From: Candidatus Microgenomatus sp.
GTDB lineage: Bacteria; Patescibacteriota; Minisyncoccia; UBA6257; GWB1-50-10
Length of the DNA: 64,000 nt
NCBI GenBank assembly: GCA_020724805.1
Contig: DYGI01000001.1
Span: forward strand, 239,157-303,156
Reading direction: 5' to 3'
The position numbers and the translations under genes were made by a program. Shown in pieces: positions 13,991 through 39,354 of the stretch; the stretch's first letter is position 1; each line of letters begins with the position of its first letter. The notes beneath the pieces are model-generated. The model had not been told where the DNA came from, ran no database searches, and was given only the letters and a program-made list of their open reading frames with translations.

Positions 13991-13996
13991 ACCACA

Positions 13997-14072: not shown

Positions 14073-14402
14073 ATGTCAGGTGGTAATTGTCCTCGGTGCC
14101 ATGCGCTGCTCGACGAAGAAAAGAGCCCATATCCAAGCCACGTTCGGTGGGTATGTCGGGAAGCGTGTGGATACACTAAAGACGTGTATCAACCGACAAG
14201 TATTCTGTCGGTCACAAGCGGGAACGAAACCGATCGACACCTGAAACCCATCATGACCCCCGGTCTCACTGGAGTTGATACCGAGACCGCGATGGATTTT
14301 TGGTCCGACCATTGTGAAACGTGGGGGCCTTCGGGGTGTGAAGCGCGGTTTCGGGCGCGCAAGGGAGTCCCGGTACATTCGCGACGGCGTGCGACGCGGT
14401 AG
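14073..14402 (+). CDS. zinc-ribbon-like hypothetical protein
   Basis: SD AAGGAGGTG. N-terminal CPRCH...CREAC pairs. Confidence 0.4.
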   Translation: MSGGNCPRCHALLDEEKSPYPSHVRWVCREACGYTKDVYQPTSILSVTSGNETDRHLKPIMTPGLTGVDTETAMDFWSDHCETWGPSGCEARFRARKGVPVHSRRRATR

Positions 14403-14430
14403 TTGCACGCCTCATCGCTAGGAAAGAAGA

Positions 14431-14466
14431 GCCCAACTTCGTGTCATGAAGTTGGGCTTTTTCTTT
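14431..14466 (+). terminator. rho-independent terminator
   Basis: GCCCAACTTC-gtgtcatg-GAAGTTGGGC followed by TTTTTCTTTTT. Confidence 0.8.
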
Positions 14467-14493
14467 TTCCGAAACGTTATACTAACTGAAAGG

Positions 14494-15057: not shown

Positions 15058-15062
15058 AACCG

Positions 15063-16082
15063 ATGAAGAAACGCGTCGCAATAAACGGATTTGGCCGCAT
15101 CGGCCGACTTTTCTTCCGACTTGGATTTGGAGCAAAAGATTTTGAGATAGTGGCGGTGAACGATCTCGGGGATGTTGCGAACCTCGCGCATCTCCTGCAG
15201 TACGATTCGGTGTATGGGCGCTACGAAAAAGAAGTGAAAGTGCGACAAGGAGCATTGATGGTGGGAGGGAAACGCATCAAGTTTCTGCAGGAAAAAGATC
15301 CCGCAAAACTTCCGTGGAAGAAAATGAAGGTGAATCTTGTGGTGGAAGCCACGGGTGCGTTCGAATCGTACGAAAAAGCGAAGGTGCATTGTGCGGCGGG
15401 TGCGAAACGCGTGGTCTTGACTGCGCCCGCGAAGGACGACGACGGCGCGCTTGGAAAAACCGTGCTCATGGGAGTGAACGAGAGCGAGATGAAAGGAGTG
15501 ACGATGACCTCGAACGGATCCTGCACTACGAACGCGGCTTCCCCAATCATCGCGGTGATGGCGGAGCGCCCCGGCATCAAAAAGGCGGTATTGAACACCG
15601 TGCACGGATATACCGCGACCCAAAATCTTGTGGATGGCCCCACCCGAGGGAAAGATTTTCGGCGTGGGAGAGCCGCGGCGGTGAACATAGTGCCTTCCAC
15701 CACCGGTGCGGCCATCTCGGTCACGCGCGCGTTTCGTCCTCTCGCGGGGCGGTTCGACGGTATTGCTATGCGCGTGCCGGTCATTGCCGGTTCGGTGGCA
15801 GACATCACGTTTCTCGCAAAGCGCAAAACTTCAGTGGATGAGGTGAACAATATTTTCAGGCGCGCCGCAAAATCTCCCAAGTGGAGAGGGATTCTTGCCG
15901 TGGCCGAGGGCCAGCTGGTATCGTCCGATATCGTAGGGGAGCCGTATGGCGCAATCGTGGACCTTGCATTCACCAAAGTAGTGGATGGCGACCTCGTGAA
16001 GGTTCTCGCGTGGTATGACAACGAGTACGGATACGCGGCCATGCTTTTGAAGCACGTTTCCCGTGCACTCACACTCCATTAA
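15063..16082 (+). CDS. gap: glyceraldehyde-3-phosphate dehydrogenase
   Basis: INGFGRIGR Rossmann start. SNGSCTTNAASP catalytic Cys region. WYDNEYGY C-terminus. Confidence 0.92.
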   Translation: MKKRVAINGFGRIGRLFFRLGFGAKDFEIVAVNDLGDVANLAHLLQYDSVYGRYEKEVKVRQGALMVGGKRIKFLQEKDPAKLPWKKMKVNLVVEATGAFESYEKAKVHCAAGAKRVVLTAPAKDDDGALGKTVLMGVNESEMKGVTMTSNGSCTTNAASPIIAVMAERPGIKKAVLNTVHGYTATQNLVDGPTRGKDFRRGRAAAVNIVPSTTGAAISVTRAFRPLAGRFDGIAMRVPVIAGSVADITFLAKRKTSVDEVNNIFRRAAKSPKWRGILAVAEGQLVSSDIVGEPYGAIVDLAFTKVVDGDLVKVLAWYDNEYGYAAMLLKHVSRALTLH

Positions 16083-17109
16083 AGTTTCCGTTATTGTCGC
16101 CGCGTCCGTGGAAATCGTGGTCGCGGTGTTTTTAGTTTTCATCGCATACCAGGTACAGCTTGCGATGCGCCACACCGCACGCGCGGCATTTCAAACGAAC
16201 CTCGTTATCAACCGAATAGCGACACGTGCCGCAGAACTCGCACAACCTAAGGGCGCCACGCTCCTTTTCGTCGGCGACGTGATGCTCGCGCGCGGTGTGG
16301 AGTTCTATACGGAACGTGAAGCCGGAGGAGACTTTCGATTTCCTTTCGCGCGAGCCTCTTCCACGCTCCGCGCGGCGGATCTCACCGTGGGGAATTTGGA
16401 GCATCCCGTTTCCGCGCGCGGGAAAAATCAAGGGAGCCAATATTCTCTTCGCGCAAAGCCGGAGGCGCTTGCCGGTCTCGCGGATGCGGGCTTCGATGTG
16501 GTTTCGCTTGCCAATAACCACATTTGGGACTGGGGTACGGATGCGCTCTCCGACACATTTCTCCATTTGGATGCCGCCGGCATTCGCTTCGTCGGCGCGG
16601 GCATGAATGAGAGCGAAGCAAATCGTCCGCTCATAATGGAGCTCAAAGGCAACTCCATCGTGTTTGTCGGGTGGACAAACTTGTACCCGGAAGGGTTGGA
16701 GGCGAAAGGCGACGAGCCGGGCATCAGCCGTTTCCGCGAAGACGAAGCGGCGGCGCAGGTAAGCAACCTCGCTGCCACGAACGATATCGTGGTGGTGCTC
16801 ATCCATTTTGGCGACGAATACAAAACGAACGCGAATGAGGTACAAAAAAAGATAGCCCGCGCGCTTGTGGATGCCGGCGCCGACCTTGTGGTTGGCCATC
16901 ATCCGCACGTGGTGGAAGAGGTGGAGAGATATCGGGAAGGCTGGATCGCCTACAGTTTAGGGAACTTTGTTTTTGACCAGGGGTTTTCTGAGGAAACCAT
17001 GCGTGGCCTTGCGCTCCGCGTCGCGGTGAAGGATGGGCGCGTGGAAAACGTAGAGGAGTTACACACGCAGATGAATGCGCATTTCCAGCCCGCATTCATT
17101 GATAATTAA
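16063..17109 (+). CDS. CapA/PGA_cap family metallophosphatase-like protein
   Basis: GTG start overlapping gap end. N-terminal TM. LLFVGDVMLARG...ANNHIWDWG...VVGHHPHVV motifs. Confidence 0.65.
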   Translation: MHSHSIKVSVIVAASVEIVVAVFLVFIAYQVQLAMRHTARAAFQTNLVINRIATRAAELAQPKGATLLFVGDVMLARGVEFYTEREAGGDFRFPFARASSTLRAADLTVGNLEHPVSARGKNQGSQYSLRAKPEALAGLADAGFDVVSLANNHIWDWGTDALSDTFLHLDAAGIRFVGAGMNESEANRPLIMELKGNSIVFVGWTNLYPEGLEAKGDEPGISRFREDEAAAQVSNLAATNDIVVVLIHFGDEYKTNANEVQKKIARALVDAGADLVVGHHPHVVEEVERYREGWIAYSLGNFVFDQGFSEETMRGLALRVAVKDGRVENVEELHTQMNAHFQPAFIDN

Positions 17110-17138
17110 GAGCTAATAATCGATAATTCAATCACTAT

Positions 17139-17606
17139 ATGGTCATTTATCTCGGTTCGGACCATCGCGGATTTGAAATAAAGGAACATCTGAAGAACGC
17201 GCTTGCGGCGCGGGGATACCCCGTGGTAGATCTGGGGCCCGCCGCGTATGACGAGAGCGATGATTATACCGACATTGCCGCCGCGCTTGCGAAGAAAGTG
17301 AGTGCGAATATGGAAACAAGTCGCGGTATTCTTCTCTGTGGTTCCGGAGTGGGAGTGTCGGTGGTAGCGAATAAGTTTCCCAATATTCGCGCGGCGCTTG
17401 TCATGATTCCCGACCAAGCCTTCGACAGCAGGAACGACGACGACGCGAACATATTGGCGCTCGGTACGAATTATCTTGATGCGGCCGCGGCAGAGAAAAT
17501 AGCGGTGACATGGCTTGCCACCCCATTCTCAAAAGAACCGCGGTTTGCGCGTCGACTCCAAGAACTTACAAAAATAGAGGCGGACGCATTGCGTCGTCCG
17601 GAGTAG
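17139..17606 (+). CDS. rpiB: ribose-5-phosphate isomerase B
   Basis: IYLGSDHRGFEIKEHL...LLCGSGVGVSVVANKF. RpiB/LacAB family. Confidence 0.9.
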   Translation: MVIYLGSDHRGFEIKEHLKNALAARGYPVVDLGPAAYDESDDYTDIAAALAKKVSANMETSRGILLCGSGVGVSVVANKFPNIRAALVMIPDQAFDSRNDDDANILALGTNYLDAAAAEKIAVTWLATPFSKEPRFARRLQELTKIEADALRRPE

Positions 17607-17738
17607 CGCATGGACCCCGTTAGAAGCAACTCAGCGACTCAATAATAGATAATGATATGCCTGTGAAATATTTAACCAACCGATTAAATCCGTGTAATAC
17701 GGGCGCGCACGTGGGCGCACCCTGCTTCTAACGGGATG
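17607..17738 (+). repeat. intercistronic structured element, copy A (diverged): SD + mini-ORF MDPVRSNSATQ + long-range stem + start codon of rpe
   Basis: CCCGTTAGAAGCA at 17617-17629 is the reverse complement of TGCTTCTAACGGG, which ends 1 nt before ATG 17736. Inner hairpin CCGTG-TAA-TACGG. Shares its architecture with copies at 31395 and 49511. Confidence 0.6.
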
Positions 17739-18398
17739 GAGGTGATTCCTACCATCAATTGCGGCGACGAAGCATGCGTGCGGCGGGGGCTCGGCGTCGT
17801 GGCGATTCTCGGAGCGGATAAGATTAAGTTCGACGTGTCGGATGGTTCATTCGCGTCCACGGTGACGTGGAACGAGCCCGCGAAACTCCGGAGCATGTTG
17901 GAAAAAGAAGGGTTGGGAGAATCGGAGATCGAGGTGCACCTTATGGTGAAGGATGTGAAGTCGGCGCTCAAGGTTTGGCTTGAAGCGGGGATACGTCGTG
18001 CGATAGTCCATATAGAGGTGTTCCCGAAAGGGAAAGAGTTGGATTTTTTCCATGAAATTGAAAGCATGTGCGTTGCGGCGGGAACAGAACTCGGTCTCGC
18101 GATTGCGCCCGAAACGGCGGTGGATGAACTTGTTGCCTATCTCGGTGAAACGCTTTTTGTGCAACTCCTCGCGGTAAAACCGGGTCCCGCAGGCCAAAAG
18201 TTCGACGAGGGGACGTTTGAAAAACTTGAATTCCTCCGCGACCGCGCGCCTGAGCTGATGATAGAAATCGACGGGGGAGTAACGCCGGCAATCGCGCGAC
18301 GACTCAAGGAAGCCGGCGCCGATGCGGTGGCGTCTTCCTCGTATATTTTCGGCGAGCGCGACCACCGCGCCGCATACCGGGAACTTTTGGACGCGTAA
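17736..18398 (+). CDS. rpe: ribulose-phosphate 3-epimerase
   Basis: 220 aa. HLMV, AVKPGPAGQKF, IEIDGGV motifs. Confidence 0.88.
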   Translation: MEVIPTINCGDEACVRRGLGVVAILGADKIKFDVSDGSFASTVTWNEPAKLRSMLEKEGLGESEIEVHLMVKDVKSALKVWLEAGIRRAIVHIEVFPKGKELDFFHEIESMCVAAGTELGLAIAPETAVDELVAYLGETLFVQLLAVKPGPAGQKFDEGTFEKLEFLRDRAPELMIEIDGGVTPAIARRLKEAGADAVASSSYIFGERDHRAAYRELLDA

Positions 18399-26785: not shown

Positions 26786-26812
26786 CGACTGGCAATTGCC
26801 AGTCGTATTTTT

Positions 26813-26814
<2 letters not shown>
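26786..26814 (+). terminator. perfect 20-nt palindrome plus T-run abutting the 16S 5' end (terminator-like or processing stem)
   Basis: CGACTGGCAATTGCCAGTCG followed by TATTTTTT. Lies between the rRNA promoter and the mature 16S start. Confidence 0.4.
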
Positions 26815-28301
<1,487 letters not shown>

Positions 28302-28509
28302 TAGTACACTTATCTTTTTCATTCCGAAGGGAGGGAGAAAGATAGCGAGCGAAAGATAGGAGGAGAGTGGAACGCGAACTCGTTTTTCGTTCCGCTCTCA
28401 GCCAGATCACGCGAATCCGTGAGGATTCAACAGGTGTTGGCCACTCAGCCTTAAGTTGGTGGCTCTAGGACAACGAAAAAAGTTTTTGGTGGTATACTGA
28501 AAATCAAAC

Positions 28510-28890
28510 ATGGCGGAAATAAAACGCATTCTTTTAGTTGAGGACGAACCTCTTTTGGGAAATCTTTTGAAGCAGCGCCTTGAGAAGGAGGGGTTCGAGA
28601 TAGTCCTTGCGCGCGACGGCGAGGAAGCGCTCGCGAAACTTCGCGAATCGAAGCCCGATCTCATTCTTCTCGACATAATTCTTCCGAAAATCTCTGGGTT
28701 CGAGCTTTTGGAGACCCTTCAAGCGGACCCCCAGTTCGAACGGGCGCCCGTCATCGTCATTTCGAATTTGGGTCAAGAGAGCGACGTGGCGCGGGGGCAG
28801 GCCCTTGGTGCTATTCAGTATTTCGTGAAGGCAAAGGTTTCCATAGAAGAGCTTGTGGAACACGTGAAAACGTTCCTGAGGGGACACTAA
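28510..28890 (+). CDS. response regulator, receiver domain only (CheY/PilH-like)
   Basis: ILLVEDEPLL...DLILLDIILPKISGFELL...KAKV. Single REC domain. Confidence 0.85.
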   Translation: MAEIKRILLVEDEPLLGNLLKQRLEKEGFEIVLARDGEEALAKLRESKPDLILLDIILPKISGFELLETLQADPQFERAPVIVISNLGQESDVARGQALGAIQYFVKAKVSIEELVEHVKTFLRGH

Positions 28891-28923
28891 GGTTATCCAC
28901 TGTTTTAATTTTTAACGAAAGGT

Positions 28924-28929
28924 ATAATA
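28924..28929 (+). promoter_or_regulatory. -10 hexamer TATAAT upstream of pilin gene
   Basis: Perfect TATAAT 32 nt upstream of ATG 28961. The -35 is weak. Confidence 0.35.
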
Positions 28930-28960
28930 AAAACGAAGATAATAATTGTATTCAGTACGC

Positions 28961-29527
28961 ATGAAACCGAAAGGATTCACCCTCATTGAGCTTCTCGTGG
29001 TCATCGCAATCCTCGCCGTTCTCGCGGTCGCGGTGGTTTTGGTGTTGAACCCCGCAGAGCTCATCAGGCAGGCACGCGACACCACGCGAATTTCCGACAT
29101 TGCGGCACTGAACAGCGCCGTCGCGCTTTTTCTTGCGGACGTGACAAGCCCCACATGGAGTGCAACAGTTAGGTGTACGAGCGGAACGGAGACTGTGGTA
29201 GGCGCGGCGTGCACTTTAAATGCATCGACCACGGTGGACGGAACGGGGTGGGTGAACCTCGATTTCACCGATATCTCGAGCGGCTCGCCTCTGCCGCGTC
29301 TCCCTATCGACCCGGTGAACGATTCGGGTTCCGCTACTTGCGCAGGAGCAGTGGATGGTTGTTACTACGGATATCGTTCGTCGGCAACGACAGGGAAGTA
29401 TAAGATTTTTGCGAACATGGAGAGCGTGAAATACACCACGGGTGGCGGTTCGGATGTGGAGTCTAATACGAAAGACGGAGGCAATGTGAATACCTGGTAT
29501 GAGGTAGGGAGTGACATGTCTCTTTAG
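28961..29527 (+). CDS. type IV pilin (prepilin-type N-terminal cleavage/methylation domain)
   Basis: MKPKGFTLIELLVVIAILAVLAVAVV: G-1, F+1, E+5 class III signal. 189 aa. Confidence 0.8.
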   Translation: MKPKGFTLIELLVVIAILAVLAVAVVLVLNPAELIRQARDTTRISDIAALNSAVALFLADVTSPTWSATVRCTSGTETVVGAACTLNASTTVDGTGWVNLDFTDISSGSPLPRLPIDPVNDSGSATCAGAVDGCYYGYRSSATTGKYKIFANMESVKYTTGGGSDVESNTKDGGNVNTWYEVGSDMSL

Positions 29528-29531
29528 TGAT

Positions 29532-29567
29532 TGCGCGGTTTCCGCGCGCCGCCTTCGGGCGTTTTTT
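29532..29567 (+). terminator. rho-independent terminator (tandem hairpins plus T7)
   Basis: GCGCGG-tttc-CGCGCG and CGCC-ttcg-GGCG followed by TTTTTTT. Confidence 0.6.
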
Positions 29568-29622
29568 TGTTATGAAAGGTGCAAGACTTTCTCTCCGTGA
29601 GATAGGCGAAGCCGCCATCTCA

Positions 29623-29675
29623 CGGGGTGCGCGAGGTATGCTAAAATTCATGATGAATATGAATTTTAATACCTC
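29623..29675 (+). promoter_or_regulatory. nested palindrome immediately upstream of pilB (candidate operator)
   Basis: GAGGTAT-gct-AAAATTCAT-gatgaat-ATGAATTTT-a-ATACCTC, ending 4 nt before ATG 29679. Confidence 0.35.
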
Positions 29676-29678
29676 AGC

Positions 29679-31394
29679 ATGATCAATCTCCCGAACGAGA
29701 AATTGAAAGAAATCGTAGTTCGTGCGGGTGCGGTGGATGAAACGATGTTCGACGCGGTAGGAGAAGAAGCCGCGCGGAAACGCCAAAGCCCCGTCGAGAT
29801 CCTCATTTCGCGCGGACTCATCTCGAAAGATTATTTCCTTATATTGGTGGCGAAAGCGCTCGGGGTTGAGCGTGTGAATTTAGGTGTGGTAAAGATTGAC
29901 GAACAAGTACTTCATCTACTTCCCGAGGATGTGGCGCGTCGAAGGAAGGTGATTCCGTTCGGCGCGGAGCCCGACGGGCGTTACAAGGTGGCGATGGAGG
30001 ACCCCACCGATCTTGAGACCATCGACTTTTTGACGTTGCGGCTCAATGGTCCTGTGAAGCCGTATCTCGCGGACGATGACGATTTAAACCGCGGTTTCAC
30101 GGTCTACCAGAAGCGCCTTACACAGGACTACAAGAAAGTCATTGAAGAGAGCGTGCAGGAATCCCTGCGGTCCAAAACGCAGGGAGGGCTGGAAGAGGCC
30201 GCGGAGGACCTTCCTATCGTTGCTATCGTCGACAATCTCCTCGAATATGCCATCTCTTCCCGCGCGTCTGATGTGCATTTCGAGATGCTCGACGACGGCA
30301 TTCTCGTGCGGTACCGCATCGACGGTATTTTGCACGAGATTATCCGAATGCCGAAAGAGGTGCACCCGGCGGTCGTCGCGCGCATTAAGATACTTTCGAA
30401 CCTTCGCGTCGACGAGCACACGCACCCTCAGGACGGACGTTTCCGATACAAGCTTGGAGGGAACGTTATCGACGTTCGCGTATCGGTCATCCCGACATTC
30501 TATGGAGAAAAAATGGTCCTTCGGCTTCTCTCCGCGGCACAGAAGCCGCTTTCGCTCGGCGAGCTCGGCATCATGGAGAACGATTCGAAGTCGATAGAAA
30601 CCGCGATTTCAAAAACCTACGGTATGGTGCTCGCGTGCGGACCCACCGGTTCCGGTAAAACCACAACGCTCTATTCCATCTTGAATCTCTTGAATAAGCC
30701 GGACGTGAACATTGTGACCATCGAAGACCCTATCGAGTACGATATGCGCTATGTGAACCAGATGCAGGTGAACGTGGCGGCCGGCATTACGTTCGCATCG
30801 GGGCTCCGCTCGGTGCTTCGCCAGGATCCGAACGTTATCATGGTCGGTGAGGTGCGTGATGCTGAGACCGCGAACATTTCGGTACAGGCGGCTTTGACCG
30901 GCCACCTGGTGCTTTCATCGCTCCACACGAATGATGCGCCGACCGTGGTGCCGCGCCTCATTGATATGGGTATCCCGCCATTTTTAGTCGCGGCGGTATT
31001 GAACGACATCATCGCGCAGCGCCTCGTGCGGAAGGTTCACTTGGACTGCATCGAATCCTACGTGCCAGAGAAAAGCGTGCTCGAAACCATTGCGCGCGAG
31101 CTTGAATCGCAGGGAGTGGATCCGCGTACCGTGAAATTGCCGAAAACGTTCTATCGTGGAAAGGGATGCACGGCGTGCGGTGGTACGGGGTATTTTGGAC
31201 GTCTCGGCATCTTCGAAGTACTCCCGGTTTCCGAAGCGGTGCGAAAACTCATCATTTCGGACGAATTCAACCTTGATAATCTCCGGAAGGTCGCGCGTGC
31301 GGAGGGAATGGTGACCATGTTCGAAGACGGACTTCGAAAAGTGGAACGGGGCATTACCACCATCGCGGAATTGTTTAGAGTGATAAGAGAGTAA
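29679..31394 (+). CDS. pilB: type IV pilus assembly ATPase PilB (GspE family)
   Basis: 571 aa. N-terminal GspII_E_N-like region. Walker A GPTGSGKTTT. Tetracysteine CTACGGTG. Confidence 0.92.
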   Translation: MINLPNEKLKEIVVRAGAVDETMFDAVGEEAARKRQSPVEILISRGLISKDYFLILVAKALGVERVNLGVVKIDEQVLHLLPEDVARRRKVIPFGAEPDGRYKVAMEDPTDLETIDFLTLRLNGPVKPYLADDDDLNRGFTVYQKRLTQDYKKVIEESVQESLRSKTQGGLEEAAEDLPIVAIVDNLLEYAISSRASDVHFEMLDDGILVRYRIDGILHEIIRMPKEVHPAVVARIKILSNLRVDEHTHPQDGRFRYKLGGNVIDVRVSVIPTFYGEKMVLRLLSAAQKPLSLGELGIMENDSKSIETAISKTYGMVLACGPTGSGKTTTLYSILNLLNKPDVNIVTIEDPIEYDMRYVNQMQVNVAAGITFASGLRSVLRQDPNVIMVGEVRDAETANISVQAALTGHLVLSSLHTNDAPTVVPRLIDMGIPPFLVAAVLNDIIAQRLVRKVHLDCIESYVPEKSVLETIARELESQGVDPRTVKLPKTFYRGKGCTACGGTGYFGRLGIFEVLPVSEAVRKLIISDEFNLDNLRKVARAEGMVTMFEDGLRKVERGITTIAELFRVIRE

Positions 31395-31523
31395 GGATAT
31401 GAATCCCGTTAGCGGCAACTAATATCATGTTCATGTTTCACCGTATAAATCCAAAAAATCGTAATATAAAGGTCTCGTGGCACAACCACGGTCGCCTTGG
31501 GGCGACCTACCTCTAACGGGATG
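31395..31523 (+). repeat. intercistronic structured element, copy B (SD + mini-ORF MNPVSGN + two GC hairpins + start codon of pilC)
   Basis: AAGGAT-ATGAATCCCGTTAGCGGCAACTAA, then AAAGGTCTCGTGGCACAACCACGGTCGCCTTGGGGCGACCTACCTCTAACGGG-ATG. About 85% identical to copy C outside the central loop. Confidence 0.6.
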
Positions 31524-32729
31524 AAATATCGTTATATTGCATCACAGCAGGATGGACGCGTGGTTGAGGGAGACCTCGAGGCGCGTGATATGACCGAGGC
31601 GCTCGCCACTCTCGGGAAAAACCAATTAAAACCGGTGAGTTTGAAACCGCTCGAAGAAGCGGCCAAGCGGTCATTTGCGCTGTTCAGAGGGAAAATGACG
31701 TTGACTGATCTCGTGTTCATGTCGAAATACCTCTCGCTCATGTTGAAAGTGGGAACGGGACTTTTGGAAGCAATAAATATTCTCGTGGCTGACATCAAAA
31801 AGCCCGCGGTGCGCGACATTCTTCTTGAGATTCGCACTACCTTGGAGCAAGGTCAGCCGTTCTACACCACATTCGCGAAGTATCCGCGTGTTTTCGGGAG
31901 CGTGTATGCAAACCTCGTAAAAGCAGGAGAAGCATCGGGTGACCTTGAACATGTGTTTGAGGATCTCACCGAGGATCTCACCAAACAAAAAGACCTCAAG
32001 GACAGGGTGCGCGGCGCCTTGATATACCCAATTCTTCTTCTCATTGGGTCAGTGCTTATCCTCTCGTTTCTTGTGGGGTTCGCGCTCCCAAAGATCGCAG
32101 ACGTCTTTCTCCAAGGCGGATTCGAGCCTCCACTTTTCTCGCGCATCGTCTTTTCCGTCGGGCTTTTCTTCAGTGATTACGGGATCTATTTCCTAGGAAT
32201 TTTTCTTGTGCTGGTCGTGATGGTGTGGCGACTCTATATTGCGTCCCCATTCTTCAAGAAATTTATTTTAGGAATATTTGCCGAGATTCCCCTCATTCGT
32301 GATGTGGTGCAGAAGATCGCGCTCCAGCGATTTGCGTCTACCTTCTCCTCGCTTATCCGCGCGGGAATGCCCATTACCGACGCCTTGGAGATTACCGCAA
32401 CCGCGGCGGGGAATGTGGAACTTTCGGAGTCATTAATGCGCATTTCGCGCGAGGGTCTCATGAAAGGGCTCACCATCGGCGAGGCGTTCAAGCGCGAACC
32501 TTTCTTTCCGCAGACCGTCGCGAGCCTCATGTCCATCTCTGAAAAGGCGGGGCATTTAGATGAAGTGCTGGGAACTCTCTCCGATTTCTACGCCAAAGAA
32601 ATAGACGCGTCGGTAAAATCACTCGTGTCATTCTTGGAACCGCTTCTCCTCGTCTTGATTGGTGCGGTCATCGGCGTTATCGCGCTTGCCATTATTGTGC
32701 CTATCTATCAATTGACCACCCAGTTTTAA
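31521..32729 (+). CDS. pilC: type IV pilus inner-membrane platform protein PilC (GspF family)
   Basis: MKYRYIASQQDGRVVEGDLEA... typical PilC N-terminus. Two GspF repeats with TM helices. Confidence 0.9.
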   Translation: MKYRYIASQQDGRVVEGDLEARDMTEALATLGKNQLKPVSLKPLEEAAKRSFALFRGKMTLTDLVFMSKYLSLMLKVGTGLLEAINILVADIKKPAVRDILLEIRTTLEQGQPFYTTFAKYPRVFGSVYANLVKAGEASGDLEHVFEDLTEDLTKQKDLKDRVRGALIYPILLLIGSVLILSFLVGFALPKIADVFLQGGFEPPLFSRIVFSVGLFFSDYGIYFLGIFLVLVVMVWRLYIASPFFKKFILGIFAEIPLIRDVVQKIALQRFASTFSSLIRAGMPITDALEITATAAGNVELSESLMRISREGLMKGLTIGEAFKREPFFPQTVASLMSISEKAGHLDEVLGTLSDFYAKEIDASVKSLVSFLEPLLLVLIGAVIGVIALAIIVPIYQLTTQF

Positions 32730-32785
32730 AAAATTGATTCTTATTGAAACATTGAAAATTGAATCATTATGAAGATTGAAAGGTT
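32730..32785 (+). repeat. AT-rich TTGAAR-unit element R1
   Basis: aaaaattgattcttattgaaacattgaaaattgaatcatt runs into the ATG of the four-helix-bundle gene. Same unit family as R2-R5. Confidence 0.6.
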
Positions 32786-33152
32786 CGAAGATCTACCGAT
32801 ATGGAAAGATGCGCGCGTACTTATTCAAATAATCTACAAACTCTCAGCCCCATGGAAAGATTTTTCATTGCGAGACCAAGTAAGACGAGCGGCAGTTTCC
32901 GCGATTTCCAACATCTCTGAAGGGTTTGAGCGCGGTTCTAATCGGGAATTTATACAATTTCTCTATATTGCGAAAGGCTCATTAGGAGAACTTCGCGCGC
33001 AACTTTACGTTGCATATGATGTGCGAATGGTAGGTAAAGAAAATTTTGAAAAATGTCTCGCGCAATGCGAGGTAGTTTCAAGGGGCATCAGCCGTTTCGT
33101 GGGATATTTGAGAAAATCCCCACTTACCAAAGAAAGGCACAAATCCAGATGA
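32769..33152 (+). CDS. four-helix-bundle protein (23S rRNA IVS protein / Avd-like family)
   Basis: 127 aa. ...AISNISEGFERGSNREFIQFLYIAKGSLGELRAQLYVA matches the TIGR02436/PF05635 family. Confidence 0.75.
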   Translation: MKIERFEDLPIWKDARVLIQIIYKLSAPWKDFSLRDQVRRAAVSAISNISEGFERGSNREFIQFLYIAKGSLGELRAQLYVAYDVRMVGKENFEKCLAQCEVVSRGISRFVGYLRKSPLTKERHKSR

Positions 33153-34324
33153 ACAAGGAATCTTTCAATTCTTCAATGGTTCAATCGCGTGGCGCGCGAA
33201 GCGCGTTCACGCTCATAGAAATGTTGGTGGTGGTTGCACTCACCGTTGCTATTGCGACCGCAGGTTTTCTCGGCCTTTCGGGATATCGCAACAAGCAAGC
33301 GCTCGAATCGGGCCTCGATGAACTCCGCGCGGCGGTGGAGGCAACGAAGCGTCGTTCGGTAGCGCAGGAGGAAGGAAGCCGGTGGGGGATGCGGTTTACA
33401 AACGCGACTTCCGGCATTTCCTCATACTCTGTCTTTCAGGGAAGCTCATATTCCACGAGCGGTATCGACCGTACCTACTCGTTCCGTGACCCCGTGGGGT
33501 TCATGAATCCGTCCGCTTCATCCACCTACGATGTGGTGTTTGCCCCGCTCTCCGGAGCGCTCTCGGAAAATAAAGTGTTCACGCTCGGCGGGGGCTTAAA
33601 AGGTTTTATCGGAGACCTTATTCTTCGCACTATCGGGTCCATCACCGCGCGCACCGATCAAGACGTGGTGGGATATTGGCACTTGGATGAAGGAACGGGA
33701 ACCGCCGCCTACGACTCCTCTGGTTACGGAAATACCGGCACACTCACGAACGGTCCGACGTGGCAATCAGGGACGAGCTGTAGGGCGGGAGGATGTCTAA
33801 ATCTAAACGGTTCGACGCATTACATACAGTACGGGAACGTTTTGAATATGGGTCTTGATGACTGGACGATTTCTGCGTGGGTCAATACAACAGATTCCTC
33901 GCTGACTAATCGGTATTATTTGAGCAAATCAAGAGCGGCAGCGCAAAACTACCGCTACGGTTTATTTATTAGCTCGAGCACACAATCGGGAGGGATATTT
34001 ATGCAGGGGAATGGGGGTGCCGATGTGGCGGTGAGCGGGAATGTAGCCGTCAATAACGGCCAATGGCACCACTTAGTCTCCGTTTTTGACAGAGACAACA
34101 ACGCCTCACTCTACATTGATGGCGCTTTGAATGCGAGCGGAACTATTTCGCAATGGGCAAGCGCAAATATGGTATCAAACAACCCTTTTAGAATAGGGTC
34201 GTACACTGCGTCTGATAATACTACGCCAACGCTATTTTTCCCCGGATCGGTGGACGAATTTCGTGTCTGGAGCCGGGCGCTCTCCGCGAGCGAGATTGAA
34301 GCGCTCTATAATGACCTTAAGTAA
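33149..34324 (+). CDS. type IV pilin-like protein with C-terminal LamG (concanavalin-like lectin) domain
   Basis: RSAFTLIEMLVVVALTVAIATAG pilin-type N-terminus (A at -1). LamG hallmarks WHLDEGTGTAAYDSSGYGNTGT...VDEFRVWSRALSASEI. Confidence 0.7.
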   Translation: MNKESFNSSMVQSRGARSAFTLIEMLVVVALTVAIATAGFLGLSGYRNKQALESGLDELRAAVEATKRRSVAQEEGSRWGMRFTNATSGISSYSVFQGSSYSTSGIDRTYSFRDPVGFMNPSASSTYDVVFAPLSGALSENKVFTLGGGLKGFIGDLILRTIGSITARTDQDVVGYWHLDEGTGTAAYDSSGYGNTGTLTNGPTWQSGTSCRAGGCLNLNGSTHYIQYGNVLNMGLDDWTISAWVNTTDSSLTNRYYLSKSRAAAQNYRYGLFISSSTQSGGIFMQGNGGADVAVSGNVAVNNGQWHHLVSVFDRDNNASLYIDGALNASGTISQWASANMVSNNPFRIGSYTASDNTTPTLFFPGSVDEFRVWSRALSASEIEALYNDLK

Positions 34325-34400
34325 ATGAAATTGAAAATTAAAAAATTGAAAATTGAACGATTGAATAGCAAATTTTTCAATCTTTCAATCCTTCAATCAC
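34325..34400 (+). repeat. AT-rich TTGAAR-unit palindromic element R2 (overlaps annotated 5' end of next CDS)
   Basis: ATGAAATTGAAAATTAAAAAATTGAAAATTGAACGATTGAATAGCAAATTTTTCAATCTTTCAATCCTTCAATCAC. Imperfect palindrome of tandem subrepeats. Confidence 0.6.
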
Positions 34401-35695
34401 ATTCGCGCTCCGGTCAATCATTGGTAGAAGTCGTCATCGGGCTCGCCATTGGGGCGATACTCATGGGTACCGCGGCCTTTGCGGTGACCACCATGCTCAA
34501 AACCAACCTCACTTCGGAAAAGTCTCAATTCGCCTCACGGTTCGCGCAGGCGCTTGCGGACAATGTACGCTCCTATGCGGTGGGGAATTGGGATTCGCTC
34601 TACAGCCTTACCAAGGCCACGAGTTCACATTATTTTTTGAACGCGTCCGGCACCACATTCTTTGTGGTGGAAGGCGAAGAGGGGATGTGGGATGGGGACG
34701 TAACTAGCGGACTCGTGGGACAGTGGAAATTCGACGAAGTGGAGACCACGACCAGCACGACCACCTATGATGCAACAGGCAATAGAAACCATGGGACTCT
34801 CGGGGGTAGCCCTACGAGAAGCACATCAACATGCAAAATTTCCAATTGCCTCACTTTCAACGGATCTAGCAATGGTGTCAGTGTTTCCGATAGTGCCACT
34901 TTCGACTTCGGGGCCGGAGATTTTTCGGTGGCGGTTTGGGTTAATCCTGCGGGAGGAGGAACGGGAGATACCCAAGACATGCTTGTTTCCAAAACATCCT
35001 ATCCGAGCGGTTTTAACAATCGTGGCCCCGGTTTCTACCTTGGAAGAGCCAACGATAGTTATTGGTCATTCATGGTGGCCGACAGCCCGGATGTGGGAGG
35101 TAATAAAGTGAATACCGGACAGAATCCTTCAGGATGGTTTCATCTTGCGGGCATTTCGGAAGGAGGAGTTCTTAAAATGTATTTGAACGGCACGCTTATG
35201 AGCACCACTACAAGGACCGTGGGGTCGGTAGATAATAGCGTGAATCTTTATTTCGCATACCGTCCTAGTGCGTGGTATTTCGGAGGAAGTTTGGACGACG
35301 TTCGTCTTTATAACCGTGCGCTCTCCGCAGATGAAGTTCGCCAACTTTGGAACTCGGGAGTGTATGAGCGTTTCTTTACCATTGAAAATGTGTGTCGCAC
35401 GAACGATGCCTCGAGCACTATCGCTTCAACCGCACCGTGCAGCGGAACACTCGAAGACGGTTCAACCCAATGGATTACGAGCTATACGCAGTGGGTCACG
35501 GGTGCGGGAACGAACGAAGTGACGATTCCTTCCATCATTGCGCGGTGGCAAAATGCGGTATTTCACCAGAGCGACTGGTCGGGAGGCGCGGCGAGCGAAG
35601 GCGCGGTCGTAGAGCCTACCAACAAGTTCTCAAGTTCCACGAATGCTTCGACGACCGGCGGGGTCATACAGATACAGAATCTCTCACAGCAATAA
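34325..35695 (+). CDS. type IV pilin-like protein with LamG domain (second paralog; true start uncertain)
   Basis: Cleavage-type motif SGQSLVEVVIGLAIGAILMG (G-1, E+5). LamG motifs WKFDE...GNRNHGTL...LDDVRLYNRALSADEV. The first 25 codons are encoded by repeat R2. A TTG start near 34363 is possible. Confidence 0.65.
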   Translation: MKLKIKKLKIERLNSKFFNLSILQSHSRSGQSLVEVVIGLAIGAILMGTAAFAVTTMLKTNLTSEKSQFASRFAQALADNVRSYAVGNWDSLYSLTKATSSHYFLNASGTTFFVVEGEEGMWDGDVTSGLVGQWKFDEVETTTSTTTYDATGNRNHGTLGGSPTRSTSTCKISNCLTFNGSSNGVSVSDSATFDFGAGDFSVAVWVNPAGGGTGDTQDMLVSKTSYPSGFNNRGPGFYLGRANDSYWSFMVADSPDVGGNKVNTGQNPSGWFHLAGISEGGVLKMYLNGTLMSTTTRTVGSVDNSVNLYFAYRPSAWYFGGSLDDVRLYNRALSADEVRQLWNSGVYERFFTIENVCRTNDASSTIASTAPCSGTLEDGSTQWITSYTQWVTGAGTNEVTIPSIIARWQNAVFHQSDWSGGAASEGAVVEPTNKFSSSTNASTTGGVIQIQNLSQQ

Positions 35696-35700
35696 AGAGG

Positions 35701-35780
35701 TTATTGAAGAATTGAGAGATTAAAGAATTGAAGAATTAGGAGATTAATAAAGAATTTTTCAATCTTTCAATTTTCAATAC
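35701..35780 (+). repeat. AT-rich TTGAAR-unit palindromic element R3
   Basis: attgaagaattgagagattaaagaattgaagaatt ... aatttttcaatctttcaattttcaat. Left and right halves are reverse complements. Confidence 0.6.
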
Positions 35781-35805
35781 CCATCTATAGGTTTATACTT
35801 TACTT

Positions 35806-36207
35806 ATGGCAACGATAAGGAACTTCCATGAAAAGTTAGAACAAGATCTCCAACGGGTAACCGCGGAGATCGAGCGCCGCAGGGAACGCGCACCCGAAAT
35901 CGCATCACGCGAAGTGGTGAGGCAGTCCATTATTGCGGCAATACCTCAAGCACCTGTTTCGGAGAGGGTCGAGGCCTCTCCCTCTGGTTCTTCACCGGCC
36001 GCGCCGGAGCGAATTCCCGCATATCTTAATGAGGAATCTCCTGAAATAAAGGCGGAGGTGGAACGACTCGTATCGCTGGCGTTCGAGAAGGGCATTTCAT
36101 CGGCAGTGGAAGAGGCGGCAAAAAAGTCCCCGTTCGTACTTGATGCGTTCCACGATGCGCTTGCGGATAAACTTCTGCCGGAATTGGAGAAAAGAGGAAT
36201 AATTTAA
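35806..36207 (+). CDS. hypothetical protein (133 aa, predicted helical)
   Basis: ORF between R3 and R4. Charged, helical composition. No motif recognised. Confidence 0.45.
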   Translation: MATIRNFHEKLEQDLQRVTAEIERRRERAPEIASREVVRQSIIAAIPQAPVSERVEASPSGSSPAAPERIPAYLNEESPEIKAEVERLVSLAFEKGISSAVEEAAKKSPFVLDAFHDALADKLLPELEKRGII

Positions 36208-36264
36208 AAATTGAAGAATTGAAGCATTGAATGATTAATTTTTCAATTTTCAATTTTCAATTTA
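36208..36264 (+). repeat. AT-rich TTGAAR-unit palindromic element R4
   Basis: aaaaattgaagaattgaagcattgaatgattaatttttcaattttcaattttcaattt, ending 4 nt before ATG 36269. Confidence 0.6.
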
Positions 36265-36268
36265 TTTT

Positions 36269-38641
36269 ATGACCCCATTCACCATCATTTTTCTTGTGGT
36301 GCTCGCCGGTGCGGGCGTCGGTTTTTATTGGTGGACACGGAGGAATACGCGTCGGCGTCTTGCGGAAGGGCTTCGGAAGAAGTTGTTTCTTATCCGGTTT
36401 CCGCGTGCTACGGGAGAAAAAGCCGGAAATGCGGAAGAAGTGGCGCGCGCGGTCGCGCTTTCTGAGCAGTTGGTGACCGCGCTCGCGGTTCCCGGTGAGT
36501 CCATCACTTTTGAGATCGCGGTACCTTACGTAGGGGAAGAGATACATTTTTACGCAGCAGTTTCCCGCGGAATGGCAGAACCTTTTATTCGACAAGTGCA
36601 ATCGCTGTGGAGCGACGCACGGGTGGAACCGGCGGATGATTACAACGTGTTCCACTATGGAGGAACCGTCGCAGGCGTGACGCTTCGTGAATCTTCCCGC
36701 TTCCTTCTCCCGCTGCGTACCTATCGCGAGGTGGGCAGCGACACATTCCTTTCCATTCTCGGCGGTCTCACGAAAGTGAATGCAGTAGGAGAAGGGTGTG
36801 CCATACAGTATGTGGTGAGGCACGCTAAGAAAGACGCAAAGCGTGAACTTACTGGAGTGCGAAAGGGGCTAGAAAAGGGGATGCCGCTCTCACATTTTCT
36901 CGATGAAAAAAAAGCTGCGCTCGCCGATCTTAAACATGCGGTTGCACCCCAGAAGAAGGACGAGAAAAAAGGTGCACAGGAGCCGGTGCGCGATGAACGA
37001 GGGGAAAAGTTGGTGGAGAGCAAACTCTCGCGACCGCTCTTCGAAGTGAATGTGCGCGTGGTCGTTTCGGCGCCCACCCCTCACCGCGCGGAAGGGTTGC
37101 TTTCCGAGCTCACTACTGGCTTCACACAGTTCGACGTGCCGGAAAGGAATAGCTTCAAGTTGGTGAGACCGAAACAGATGAATACGTTCGTGCGCCAGTT
37201 TTCGTTCCGCGAATTTTCTCCGGAAGACGCCATGGTGTTGAATGCAGAAGAATTTGTGAGCATTTTCCACTTGCCGACTCCGTGGACCATACTTCCGCGC
37301 ATACGCATGGTGAAAAGCCGGGAAGCGCCACCGCCGGCGAAACTTCCTTCCCAGGGAATGCTCCTTGGGGAGAGCGTCTACCGTGGCGAGCGTCGTCCCG
37401 TAAAACTTGCGGACGAGGATCGCCGGCGTCATCTCTATCTCGTAGGGCAGACCGGCACCGGGAAAAGCACGCTCATCACCTCGCTTGCCGCGCAGGATAT
37501 GGCAAACGGGAAAGGGCTTGCGCTCATCGATCCTCATGGCGACTTGGTTGAGCGCCTTATGGCGCTTGTGCCGCCGGCGCGGATGAATGATGTGGTGGTA
37601 TTCGACCCATCCGACCTCGAACTTCCCGTAGGGGTGAACATGATAGAGCACGACCCCGCGAACCCGGAGCAAAAAACGTTCATTGTGAACGAGCTTCTTG
37701 GAATATTCGACAAACTCTACGATCTCAAAGCGACCGGAGGGCCGATGTTCGAACAATATATGAGAAATGCGCTTCTCCTTCTCATGGAAGATGCCGCGCA
37801 TGAACCCGCCACACTCATGGAAGTGCCGAGGGTATTCACCGACGGGGCGTGGCGCGCACAAAAACTTGCGCGTATCACAAATCCCACCGTGCAGGATTTC
37901 TGGGAGAAGGAAGCGGTAAAAGCGGGCGGCGAAGCGGCGCTTGCAAACATTACGCCTTACGTGACCTCGAAATTCGCAGCGTTCACCGCGAACGATTATA
38001 TGAGGGTCATTGTGGGCCAAACGCGCTCCGCATTCAATTTTCGGGAGCTTATGGACGGGGGAAAAATACTTTTTGTGAATTTGGCGAAAGGGAAAATAGG
38101 AGATCTCAACGCGTCGCTTCTCGGTATGATTATTGTGGGTAAGATCCTTATGGCAGCACTCTCCCGCGGAGACATGCAGGAGCAATCGCGCCGCGATTTC
38201 AACCTTTTCATCGACGAGTTCCAGAATTTCACCACCGATTCCATTGCAACCATTCTTTCGGAGGCGCGGAAGTATCGGTTGAATCTCACCATTGCCCACC
38301 AGTTTTTGGGTCAGCTTACCGAGAAGATCAGAGATGCGGTATTCGGCAACGTTGGTTCGCTTCTCGTGTTCCGCGTGGGGGCGCCGGATGCGGAGCTTTT
38401 GGCAAAACAGCTTGGCGGCGCATTCACTCCCGACGATCTTACCAACCTCGATAATTTTCGCGGCTCCCTGAAGCTTTTGGTGGATGGAGAAACCGCGCCT
38501 CCGTTCTCGCTTGCGCTTACGCCGGCGCTTCATGGAGACGACTCGCTTCGCACATCAATTAAAGAACGTTCCCGTACAAGATACGGGAGACCGCGCGAGG
38601 AAGTGGAGAGGGAAATACGGGAGCGGCTTCGGAAAATATGA
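36269..38641 (+). CDS. membrane-anchored T4SS-type ATPase (VirB4/TraG-VirD4-like, FtsK-HerA superfamily)
   Basis: 790 aa. N-terminal TM. About 350-aa unknown domain. Walker A LYLVGQTGTGKSTL. Walker B/TraG-D_C-like block NLFIDEFQNFTTD...ARKYRLNLTIAHQFLGQL. Confidence 0.75.
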   Translation: MTPFTIIFLVVLAGAGVGFYWWTRRNTRRRLAEGLRKKLFLIRFPRATGEKAGNAEEVARAVALSEQLVTALAVPGESITFEIAVPYVGEEIHFYAAVSRGMAEPFIRQVQSLWSDARVEPADDYNVFHYGGTVAGVTLRESSRFLLPLRTYREVGSDTFLSILGGLTKVNAVGEGCAIQYVVRHAKKDAKRELTGVRKGLEKGMPLSHFLDEKKAALADLKHAVAPQKKDEKKGAQEPVRDERGEKLVESKLSRPLFEVNVRVVVSAPTPHRAEGLLSELTTGFTQFDVPERNSFKLVRPKQMNTFVRQFSFREFSPEDAMVLNAEEFVSIFHLPTPWTILPRIRMVKSREAPPPAKLPSQGMLLGESVYRGERRPVKLADEDRRRHLYLVGQTGTGKSTLITSLAAQDMANGKGLALIDPHGDLVERLMALVPPARMNDVVVFDPSDLELPVGVNMIEHDPANPEQKTFIVNELLGIFDKLYDLKATGGPMFEQYMRNALLLLMEDAAHEPATLMEVPRVFTDGAWRAQKLARITNPTVQDFWEKEAVKAGGEAALANITPYVTSKFAAFTANDYMRVIVGQTRSAFNFRELMDGGKILFVNLAKGKIGDLNASLLGMIIVGKILMAALSRGDMQEQSRRDFNLFIDEFQNFTTDSIATILSEARKYRLNLTIAHQFLGQLTEKIRDAVFGNVGSLLVFRVGAPDAELLAKQLGGAFTPDDLTNLDNFRGSLKLLVDGETAPPFSLALTPALHGDDSLRTSIKERSRTRYGRPREEVEREIRERLRKI

Positions 38642-39354
38642 AGGTAGTGGTTGCAAACTGGAAAATGAATCCCGCAACGCCGCGGGAAGCAGTAAAACTC
38701 GCACGCGCCGAGGACAAGCTAAAGGTCATCGTCGCGCCTCCGTTCCCGTTCCTTGAGGATGTGGGGAGAGTGTTGAAGAGGGCGACGCTTGGCGCGCAGG
38801 ATGCATTTTGGATTTCCCGCGGCGCATATACCGGGGAAGTTTCAGTGCAACAGTTGAAGAGGCTTCGTGTATCCTACGTTATTGTCGGACACTCGGAGCG
38901 GCGCGCCCAAGGAGAAACGAACGGCATGGTCCGGAAAAAAGTAGAAGCGGTTCATGCCGCCGGCCTTACCCCGATACTTTGCGTGGGTGAGCCGTGGCCA
39001 GTGAGGAAAAAAGGGTTCGCGGCGGCGAAACGTTATGTAGCGCGCCAACTCCACGCAGCGCTTTCGGGTACCCGAAAAAAATTAATTGTGGCATACGAAC
39101 CTGTATGGGCCATTGGGTCTGGAAAAGCGGACAGTCCGGCGGAAGCGGCGGAGATGGCTGATTTTATAAAGGAGTTATTGATTGTGAGTTACCGGTCATC
39201 AGTGAAGGTTTTGTATGGAGGTTCGGTCACCCCGCGCAATGCTCGTGCATTTCTCAAGGCGCGAGCACTTGATGGAGCGTTGGTAGGGGGTGCGAGTTTG
39301 CGTCCGCGCGACTTTACCAAAATAATAAGCGCTATCAATGTCGCGAACCGTTAA
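38638..39354 (+). CDS. tpiA: triosephosphate isomerase
   Basis: VVANWKMN, VIVGHSERR, ILCVGE, YEPVWAIGSG motifs. Confidence 0.9.
   Translation: MKVVVANWKMNPATPREAVKLARAEDKLKVIVAPPFPFLEDVGRVLKRATLGAQDAFWISRGAYTGEVSVQQLKRLRVSYVIVGHSERRAQGETNGMVRKKVEAVHAAGLTPILCVGEPWPVRKKGFAAAKRYVARQLHAALSGTRKKLIVAYEPVWAIGSGKADSPAEAAEMADFIKELLIVSYRSSVKVLYGGSVTPRNARAFLKARALDGALVGGASLRPRDFTKIISAINVANR

Follow-up and report, generated by a model that had tools for sequence, protein, structure and literature searches.

Does a type IV pilus gene cluster that is followed directly by a gene for a conjugation-type ATPase encode one machine or two? This question is raised by a 64,000-nucleotide stretch of a Patescibacteria (Candidate Phyla Radiation, CPR) chromosome (Candidatus Microgenomatus sp., contig DYGI01000001.1, positions 239,157 to 303,156), hereafter called the window. 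The nearest named homologues of its ATPase come from metagenome-assembled genomes of Candidatus Jorgensenbacteria and Brennerbacteria. A preliminary description, made from the sequence alone, had taken a REC-only response regulator, a major pilin with a GFTLIE signal, PilB, PilC, a four-helix-bundle protein (PF05635), two pilins with LamG lectin domains (LamG1 and LamG2), a 133-aa protein (p133) and a 790-aa ATPase as a single hybrid apparatus for translocation. All of these genes are indeed present on the + strand, in the order described. We consider it probable, though far from settled, that they fall into two adjacent units: a pilus cluster of the kind usual in CPR bacteria, and an autonomous translocation-type ATPase module consisting of p133 and an ATPase with a DUF8128 domain. 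It is p133, and not the pilus, that is the ATPase's constant partner. The two members of this module are the following.

36269-38641, + strand: the 790-aa ATPase, with a transmembrane (TM) anchor, a DUF8128 domain predicted to resemble the N-terminal domain (NTD) of VirB4, and a P-loop ATPase domain with a helical insertion
35806-36207, + strand: p133, 133 aa, soluble and helical, with an N-terminal helix, a linker rich in Pro, Ser and Ala, and a C-terminal helical domain

First, the neighbourhood of the ATPase gene was surveyed in 80 species-representative loci from GTDB genomes (ATPase identity 41-55%, mean length 16 kb), together with loci of closer relatives. The open reading frames (ORFs) in these loci were labelled by means of the window proteins, and all neighbours were clustered. 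PilB was found near the ATPase in only 1 of the 80 species-level loci, PilC in none (0/80) and a LamG protein in three (3/80). The sole distant locus with PilB, L053, was rejected as a case of pilus linkage, as its single PilB-like gene stands alone on the opposite strand, amid tyrS, a sigma factor gene, an AI-2E transporter gene and ksgA. The full order of pilus genes, LamG, LamG, p133 and ATPase is seen only in L084, L085, L092, L093 and L001, whose ATPases are 56-84% identical to that of the window (74% in L084 and 81% in L085). Thus, the adjacency of pilus and ATPase genes does recur in relatives, but not beyond one clade, and the proposal of a single hybrid apparatus could not be upheld.

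The position directly upstream of the ATPase gene was analyzed at the 72 species-level loci that have room there. p133 is encoded on the same strand at 49 of them, another small protein at 16, a fusion ORF at three, and neither at four. In-frame fusions of p133 to the ATPase occur in L073 (9629-12406) and L077 (9599-12334). An apparent fusion in L026 was rejected because its junction is a masked run of X. Furthermore, many DUF8128 clusters consist of longer proteins (909-977 aa) whose DUF8128 domain begins around residue 150-220, and all 11 long homologues that were fetched (667-977 aa) open with a p133-like domain (E 1e-9 to 1e-13). These are P0197, P0209, P0221, P0236, P0250, P0261, P0269, P0275 and P0297, and the shorter P0204 and P0273 of 667-668 aa. 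Ten of the 11 fusions have no TM helix, and in P0261 the two parts are linked by a membrane hairpin of two helices. Since such fusions are Rosetta-stone evidence, p133 and the ATPase are likely to act together, and the fused architectures show that p133 is cytoplasmic and is joined at the N-terminal side of the ATPase. The fused forms without a TM helix imply a soluble form of the motor.

p133 itself has no match in Pfam, NCBIfam, PADLOC or PDB, and no hydrophobic segment was found in it. Its C-terminal helices carry an invariant signature, D113..H116..L119. An iterated hidden Markov model (HMM) of p133 drifted onto the ATPase through the fused ORFs and was discarded, and single-round HMMs were used instead. 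The small protein at the other 16 loci (c4, about 160 aa, e.g., L071 836-1330 and L046 9509-9982) shows no detectable similarity to p133 (hhalign probability 0.2) and was not counted as such. It may do the job of p133 by analogy, or be a partner that has diverged strongly.

Why, then, do the two sets of genes lie side by side in the window? Across the Jorgensenbacteria-like clade, the whole region from the 16S rRNA gene to rpoBC is syntenic and the order of tpiA, ftsW, mltG, rpoB and rpoC is kept, and L084 has the gene for ribosomal protein L31 upstream as the window does. The two ends of the cluster are flanked as follows.

26808-28310: complete 16S rRNA gene, directly upstream of the pilus cluster
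38638-39354, + strand: tpiA (TIM 4.2e-70), whose start overlaps the ATPase stop (ATGA, 38638-38641)

The gaps after tpiA are -17, -4, -17 and +15 bp, and the gap from LamG2 to p133 is 110 bp. The ATPase gene is therefore packed with tpiA, ftsW and mltG at least as tightly as with the upstream pilus genes. An opposite-strand PMT gene splits LamG2 from p133 in L001 and L093, and members of the clade vary in whether GtrA, GT2 and GalT genes intervene between the ATPase gene and tpiA. Because synteny is clade-wide, the genome compact and the packing tighter downstream, the adjacency of pilus and ATPase looks like inherited gene order. Where genomes are tiny and highly syntenic, the close packing of co-directional genes says little in favour of a composite machine. 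As a separate observation, L092 carries, between tpiA and ftsW (13596-17899), a restriction-modification gene of type IIG (MmeI/Eco57I-like) and a toxin-antitoxin pair, AbiEi/AbiEii, an insertion that makes a small defence islet within the otherwise syntenic region.

The spacers of the cluster carry A/U-rich palindromes built of ATTGAA and TTCAAT repeats, and one of these palindromes encloses the PF05635 gene.

32743-32763: left palindrome arm (ATTGAAn, three times), which encloses the PF05635 gene together with the right arm
32769-33152, + strand: gene for a four-helix-bundle protein of PF05635/TIGR02436 ('23S rRNA IVS protein'; 23S_rRNA_IVP 3.6e-30)
33164-33185: right palindrome arm (nTTCAAT, three times), overlapping the 5' end of LamG1
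34330-34397: palindrome between LamG1 and LamG2 (RNA fold -14.6 kcal/mol, z -3.1)
35706-35778: palindrome of this family in the LamG2/p133 spacer (RNA fold -21.6 kcal/mol, z -3.35)
36198-36266: palindrome of this family in the p133/ATPase spacer (RNA fold -17.6 kcal/mol, z -3.7)

The pattern ATTGAAN{1,4}ATTGAA occurs 15 times in the window against 0.06 expected, and 14 of the 15 occurrences lie at 32.7-36.3 kb. The remaining one is at 50361-50374. A strict pattern, TTGAARN{0,12}YTTCAA, found nothing, whereas the repeat-unit pattern succeeded. The palindromes to which the preliminary description drew attention are thus real and far above chance. However, they do not delimit one accessory block as had been thought, but occupy every spacer between the PilC gene and the ATPase gene. 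In L084, the repeats are likewise found only in the cluster (3309-9943), and L085 has neither the palindromes nor the PF05635 gene, with spacers of 0-33 bp. The palindromes could be repetitive extragenic palindromic-like elements, sites of RNA processing or attenuation, or operators.

Several of these observations weigh against the separation of the two units and are what a single apparatus would explain. In such an apparatus, a pilus tipped with LamG modules would capture a target or DNA, and the ATPase and p133 would power translocation of DNA or effectors across the membrane. The gene order is kept in the Jorgensenbacteria-like clade, among relatives whose ATPases share only 56-84% identity with that of the window. 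A LamG2-type pilin gene adjoins p133 and the ATPase in L003, L094, L004 and L008, and in L003 and L094 it stays there although neither PilB nor PilC is nearby. The same palindromes are common to the minor-pilin spacers and the p133/ATPase spacers in the window and in L084 and occur almost nowhere else, which would fit co-regulation. CPR bacteria also rely on scavenging of DNA and nucleotides and on type IV pili (PMC6744442). In addition, the ATPase domain cannot be placed by its structure alone among HerA, VirB4 and the type IV coupling proteins (T4CPs). However, a single apparatus is difficult to reconcile with the virtual lack of PilB and PilC beside the ATPase in the 80 other species, with the PMT gene that breaks the cluster in L001 and L093, and with L085, which keeps the gene order without the palindromes or the PF05635 gene. 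The ATPase is translationally coupled to tpiA rather than to the pilus genes, and the fused p133-ATPase forms have no N-terminal TM anchor. Taken together, we regard one apparatus as improbable.

The nature of the ATPase bears on what the module may do. The protein has a TM helix at residues 3-22 (N-out/C-in), DUF8128 at about 36-345 and a P-loop domain at about 360-755, with Walker A at 393-400 and Walker B at 648-652. The motifs and membrane anchor already recognized in the preliminary description were found to be conserved: GQTGTGKS (393-400), IDEFQNF (648-654) and AHQF (676-679) are invariant in 40 homologues, whose mean column identity is 66%, and an N-terminal TM helix is present in 39 of the 40. 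Invariance of Walker A, Walker B and the AHQ motif suggests an active enzyme, and its body is likely to be cytoplasmic because an Arg/Lys-rich stretch follows the TM helix. The family is large. PF26449 (DUF8128) is assigned by precomputed annotation to the identical protein of the window, P0001, and to all 120 homologues among the matches listed; more than 6,348 homologues, named as Patescibacteria T4SS (type IV secretion system) DNA-binding or DUF87 proteins, were found, and the DUF8128 profile covers 1,809 clusters at 50% identity.

Within the FtsK-HerA superfamily, the ATPase falls in the VirB4/VirD4 branch. Among the Pfam families suggested for it beforehand, T4SS-DNA_transf (PF02534; 29.7 against a gathering score of 20.1) and TraG-D_C (PF12696; 23.3 against 22) passed, as did TrwB_AAD_bind (PF10412; 27.7 against 20.5) and DUF87 (32 against 23.2), whereas AAA_10 and CagE_TrbE_VirB (PF03135) gave no match at E<=0.01. 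The VirB4 model TIGR00929 reached 14.8 bits against a cut-off of 643. The best NCBIfam match was SXT_TraD, and all TraD and TraG equivalogs stayed far under their cut-offs (e.g., 48.7 vs 366). By sequence, the best PDB chains were TrwB (2.9e-5; 7e-8 with a profile) and DotL, and no VirB4 chain appeared even in a 40-sequence profile search. For the N-domain, sequence and profile searches of PDB gave nothing usable. Structure prediction had been advised for this domain. In Foldseek searches with a full-length AlphaFold model built from 40 homologues (pLDDT 85.9), the whole chain matched TrwK/VirB4 over about 870 columns (E 1.6e-16), and the C-terminal half matched TrwB (TMt 0.66), so that the predicted N-domain has a VirB4-NTD-like fold. 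The earlier label of a VirB4/TraG-like ATPase is therefore fair for the protein as a whole, but the likeness to VirB4 is confined to the fold of the N-domain; the sequence is like that of the coupling proteins TrwB, TraD and VirD4 and gives no VirB4 signal. Judged from model and profiles, the ATPase is of VirB4 build with coupling-protein sequence signatures.

This mixed character is also apparent when the ATPase is compared with each of the two known types. With T4CPs (TrwB of R388, VirD4, TraD, DotL and Cagbeta), it shares the P-loop ATPase domain with a helical insertion, a TrwB-like fold, the best sequence matches in Pfam, NCBIfam and PDB, and the N-terminal membrane anchor. Its short relatives on mobile elements, moreover, adjoin relaxase-like genes. 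However, it has one TM helix where T4CPs usually have two, an extra VirB4-NTD-like domain of 310 residues, and an obligate 133-aa partner that is often fused N-terminally in place of the TM helix. It is also encoded amid chromosomal housekeeping genes, and neither relaxase nor T4SS genes are close by. With VirB4 (TrwK of R388 and VirB4 of T. pseudethanolicus), it shares the size of about 800 aa, the two-domain layout of NTD and ATPase, and a small protein encoded immediately upstream and sometimes fused N-terminally. An upstream small gene followed by the ATPase gene resembles virB3-virB4. However, p133 is soluble and VirB3 is membrane-embedded, and no VirB3-, VirB6-, VirB8- or VirB2-like genes are adjacent. 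The short relatives are proteins of 412-446 aa on IMG/VR contigs (L086-L091), which match only residues 351-787 or so of the ATPase at 33-38% identity. In L087 (IMGVR_UViG_2898945296_000003, 1415-10829), such a short T4CP-like gene lies beside a large serine recombinase, Replic_Relax and a second T4CP-like gene. These viral or mobile relatives support descent of the ATPase from coupling proteins of DNA transfer.

Coupling proteins without a neighbouring virB4 gene have already been reported in this group. In 2,918 Patescibacteria genomes, 5,713 VirD4-like T4CPs were counted, and 148 of them are near virB4; the orphan genes number about two per genome, and their role was left open (Quinonero-Coronel et al., 2025; PMC12102498). 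The window ATPase probably falls within this population, because its Pfam T4CP scores are over threshold and it shows no VirB4 signal. The pair may thus be a coupling protein and its adaptor, recruiting protein or DNA substrates to a chromosomal T4SS of the monoderm Patescibacteria type encoded elsewhere. Its T4CP signatures agree with such a role. About 80% of Patescibacteria genomes have a virB4 cluster without a nearby T4CP, and T4CPs often lie away from virB4 (PMC12102498); likewise, the Saccharibacteria T4SS cluster has no recognisable coupling protein inside (PMC10633639). Small adaptors that bind T4CPs are known, e.g., CagZ with Cagbeta (8dol), which was among the fold matches. On the other hand, one TM helix together with a VirB4-NTD-like domain, or no TM helix in the fused forms, is a non-canonical build for a coupling protein. 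The t4cp homologue of S. epibionticum is non-essential, whereas its T4SS genes are essential (PMC12102498), and neither T4SS nor relaxase genes were found near the p133-ATPase pair in the 81-locus neighbourhood survey. Coupling to a distant T4SS is an alternative that we think unlikely. A literature search for DUF8128 found no papers, and no description of the VirB4-like N-domain, the p133 partner or the fusions was found in the literature, of which coverage was incomplete. Both the VirB4-like N-domain and the fused partner seem to be novel features, while orphan coupling proteins as such had already been counted (PMC12102498).

Two further known groups of ATPases deserve comparison. The match to DUF87 over its cut-off, a PADLOC match to mad8 (5.9e-18 over the ATPase domain) and weak matches to HerA models would be explained if the pair were a HerA/DUF87-type ATPase for defence or DNA repair with an accessory protein, similar to anti-phage HerA modules or mad8 of MADS. 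However, the combination of an N-terminal HAS-barrel with a nuclease or effector partner that marks HerA/DUF87 proteins was not found for the window ATPase, and among its neighbours, both in the window and in the 81-locus survey, there is no gene for a nuclease, Sir2 or a methylase and none of the other mad genes. p133 matches no defence model, and the strong conservation of the ATPase and its stable housekeeping context are unlike those of patchy defence islands. A defence role is hardly credible on these grounds. The archaeal Ced/Ted systems, which import DNA, share with the window a membrane ATPase of the VirB4/HerA family that acts outside classical conjugation, and the preliminary description had invoked them as an analogy. 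This analogy proved to be loose. The CedD model gave 23 bits against a cut-off of 600, in the P-loop region only, and no CedA-like polytopic protein or VirB2-like pilin is adjacent in the window. From work by Beltran et al. in 2023, the Ced/Ted filaments are reportedly of VirB2 type and not type IV pilins. Organisms with Ced/Ted also use type IV pili for cell contact (PMC12102498).

The genes that recur beside the ATPase in the survey are of another kind. They encode GT-C/PMT-like glycosyltransferases (29 + 17 loci, divergent), GtrA, DnaX (27 loci) and FtsQ. Together with GT2 and FtsW neighbours, and with a family that is very widespread and looks vertically inherited, they would be compatible with a housekeeping task of the pair in the envelope or cell cycle, either as an FtsK-like DNA pump at division or as a motor tied to polyprenol-dependent surface glycosylation. 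However, such neighbours may just mirror the conserved gene order of Paceibacteria, and there is no mechanistic precedent that ties VirB4 or T4CP ATPases to glycosylation, so that this role seems very unlikely. The glycosyltransferase neighbours hint either at a link to polyprenol-dependent surface glycosylation or merely at conserved gene order. PMT/GT-C, GtrA, GT2 and GalT genes were noted in L001 (7862-9358 and 12385-14834), L093 (7119-8561 and 11352-13670), L092 (11087-12571) and L094 (11372-13802).

If the pilus and the ATPase module are separate units, as we favour, a mechanism can be outlined for each. The CheY-like regulator, the major pilin, PilB, PilC and the two LamG minor pilins would form the pilus. 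Across Paceibacteria, soluble p133 and the membrane-anchored ATPase of the VirB4/VirD4 family would form the second unit. The ATPase may, like its relatives, form a ring on the cytoplasmic side of the membrane, and ATP would drive a polymer substrate into a membrane channel encoded elsewhere. DNA is the most probable substrate, judging from the coupling-protein ancestry and the relatives beside relaxase-like genes. p133 would dock on the N-terminal side of the ATPase as an adaptor or regulator. The two units would then be neighbours through the conserved Jorgensenbacteria-like gene order, and not as parts of one machine. A more far-reaching idea, which is speculative and quite unlikely in our estimate, is that DUF8128 and p133 represent a hitherto unrecognised third VirB4/VirD4 lineage, a stand-alone motor of the cytoplasmic membrane, widespread in Paceibacteria, in which an N-domain of VirB4 type is joined to an ATPase domain of coupling-protein type. 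It would be the missing motor that pulls scavenged DNA or another polymer inward downstream of a type IV pilus and ComEC. If this were true, the Jorgensenbacteria-like clade would preserve, in its adjacent pilus genes, a trace of a genuine partnership in function.

These findings are of interest because Patescibacteria account for much of bacterial diversity and live by attachment to, and scavenging from, other cells, with pili, competence genes and a repurposed T4SS as their best-known tools. At least one large family of orphan 'VirD4-like' proteins is predicted to have a VirB4-like two-domain build, with a dedicated small partner that is often fused, and is inherited in the manner of a housekeeping gene. 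p133 and the ATPase thus offer a concrete, testable two-protein unit, and possibly an intermediate in the evolution of VirB4 and VirD4.

The pilus unit is the usual core cluster of a monoderm or CPR-type type IV pilus. Its genes, apart from the PF05635 gene given above, are listed here with one associated signal.

28510-28890, + strand: REC-only (CheY/PilH-like) response regulator, the first gene of the pilus cluster (Pfam Response_reg 4e-25, no output domain)
28961-29527, + strand: major type IV pilin (N_methyl 1.5e-9, TIGR02532; leader MKPKG/FTLIELL)
29546-29572, + strand: terminator-like GC hairpin and T-run after the pilin gene, GCGCCGCCTTCGGGCGT TTTTTTG, a consensus match only
29679-31394, + strand: PilB/GspE-type assembly ATPase (T2SSE 1.8e-118; N-terminal MshEN 7e-16)
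31497-32729, + strand: PilC/GspF platform protein (T2SSF 1.4e-51 in two stretches; GspF 8e-81)
33176-34324, + strand: modular minor pilin LamG1 (C-terminal Laminin_G_3 1.4e-27, N_methyl 7e-4; N-terminal ComGD and GspH matches)
34325-35695, + strand: modular minor pilin LamG2 (Laminin_G_3 5.8e-23, N_methyl 4.6e-5; leader ...SG/QSLVEVV)

The REC regulator keeps its position in L001, L084 and L085. The ORF of the major pilin opens at a TTG at 28946, and the ATG at 28961 is the likelier start. PilB matched TIGR02538 at 1e-159 with 530 bits, under the equivalog cut-off of 675. MshEN is the cyclic-di-GMP-binding module of MshE-type ATPases, and no cyclic-di-GMP enzymes were seen in the window. The class III signal (N_methyl/TIGR02532) is present on the major pilin and on both LamG proteins. 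LamG1 has the leader MVQSRGARSA/FTLIEM, with an alternative start at 33149, and an internal TTG is probably the true start of LamG2, whose homologues have short leaders of the form M..SG/QSLVEIL. The two LamG pilins are paralogues, with 29% identity across the lectin module. Searches of PDB with them gave generic lectin matches only, and no Ig-like module was identified in either.

No secretin, PilM/N/O, PilT or prepilin peptidase (PilD) was found among the ORFs scanned in the 64-kb window, several of which have no match at all. The absence noted in the preliminary description is therefore correct for the window, but little significance can be attached to it, as pili without PilQ are normal in CPR bacteria. 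In surveys of these bacteria, PilB, PilT, PilC, PilM/N/O and PilD are widespread and PilQ is absent, and PilT, PilM/N/O and PilD usually have their genes at other places in the genome (PMC6744442). The LamG pilins have a precedent in PilC of S. sanguinis, a minor pilin of modular build that sits at the pilus tip and bears a ConA-like lectin module (PMC9934059). Monoderm pili with such lectin minor pilins and CPR pili share PilB, PilC, a class III pilin and the lack of a secretin with the pilus of the window, and a ConA/LamG-type lectin module on minor pilins is shared with S. sanguinis PilC, so that a position at the tip is expected here by analogy. The window differs in having two paralogous LamG pilins. 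By this precedent, the LamG modules most likely lie at the pilus tip and bind glycans of a host or surface. The tip-adhesin role proposed earlier is thus reasonable, and not new in kind.

The PF05635 gene remains to be considered. Its ORF forms the loop of an ATTGAA/TTCAAT palindrome (window 32743-33185), and the same arrangement is found in L084 (6476-6941). L084 has the gene at the equivalent site, whereas L085, L001, L092 and L093 lack it. It had been called a member of an Avd/IVS family, where IVS stands for intervening sequence. The family match of 3.6e-30 bears out this assignment, and the position between inverted repeats recalls IVS ORFs, which likewise sit in an excised rRNA stem-loop. 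However, the window gene lies outside any rRNA gene. As for Avd, a component of diversity-generating retroelements, this role was rejected, because no reverse transcriptase was found among the ORFs scanned and no pair of template and variable repeats lies nearby. Given its patchy presence among relatives and the lack of these retroelement parts, the gene is best seen as a variably present passenger and not as a component of either system. The suggestion that the accessory part was acquired as a module can apply to this gene at most.

The wider setting of the cluster is a segment of the chromosome. Around it lie uvrA/uvrB, genes of glycolysis and the pentose-phosphate pathway, genes for ribosomal proteins L25 and L31 and the 16S rRNA gene, and then tpiA, ftsW, mltG, rpoB, rpoC, ssb, parAB, relA, groEL and thyX. 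The rRNA genes appear to be unlinked here, since Rfam detected no 23S or 5S gene in the window. GC content is 0.50 at 32-36 kb and 0.53-0.55 in the flanks. No mobile-element genes are present in the window, and the ORFs scanned there gave no match to a relaxase, a VirB4 cluster, ComEC or a reverse transcriptase. Scans for sigma-70 promoter and terminator consensus sequences showed no enrichment over shuffles. Two other genes in the window are unusual. A 537-aa protein (5999-7612) carries a Por_Secre_tail domain, a C-terminal sorting domain of type IX secretion, at 1.7e-6, barely over the cut-off; such a domain is unexpected where an outer membrane is thought to be absent. In addition, a ThyX-like ORF of 599 aa (57744-59543) has its Thy1 domain only at residues 180-351, and it is perhaps an unusually extended or fused thymidylate synthase, or an ORF with a mis-called start.

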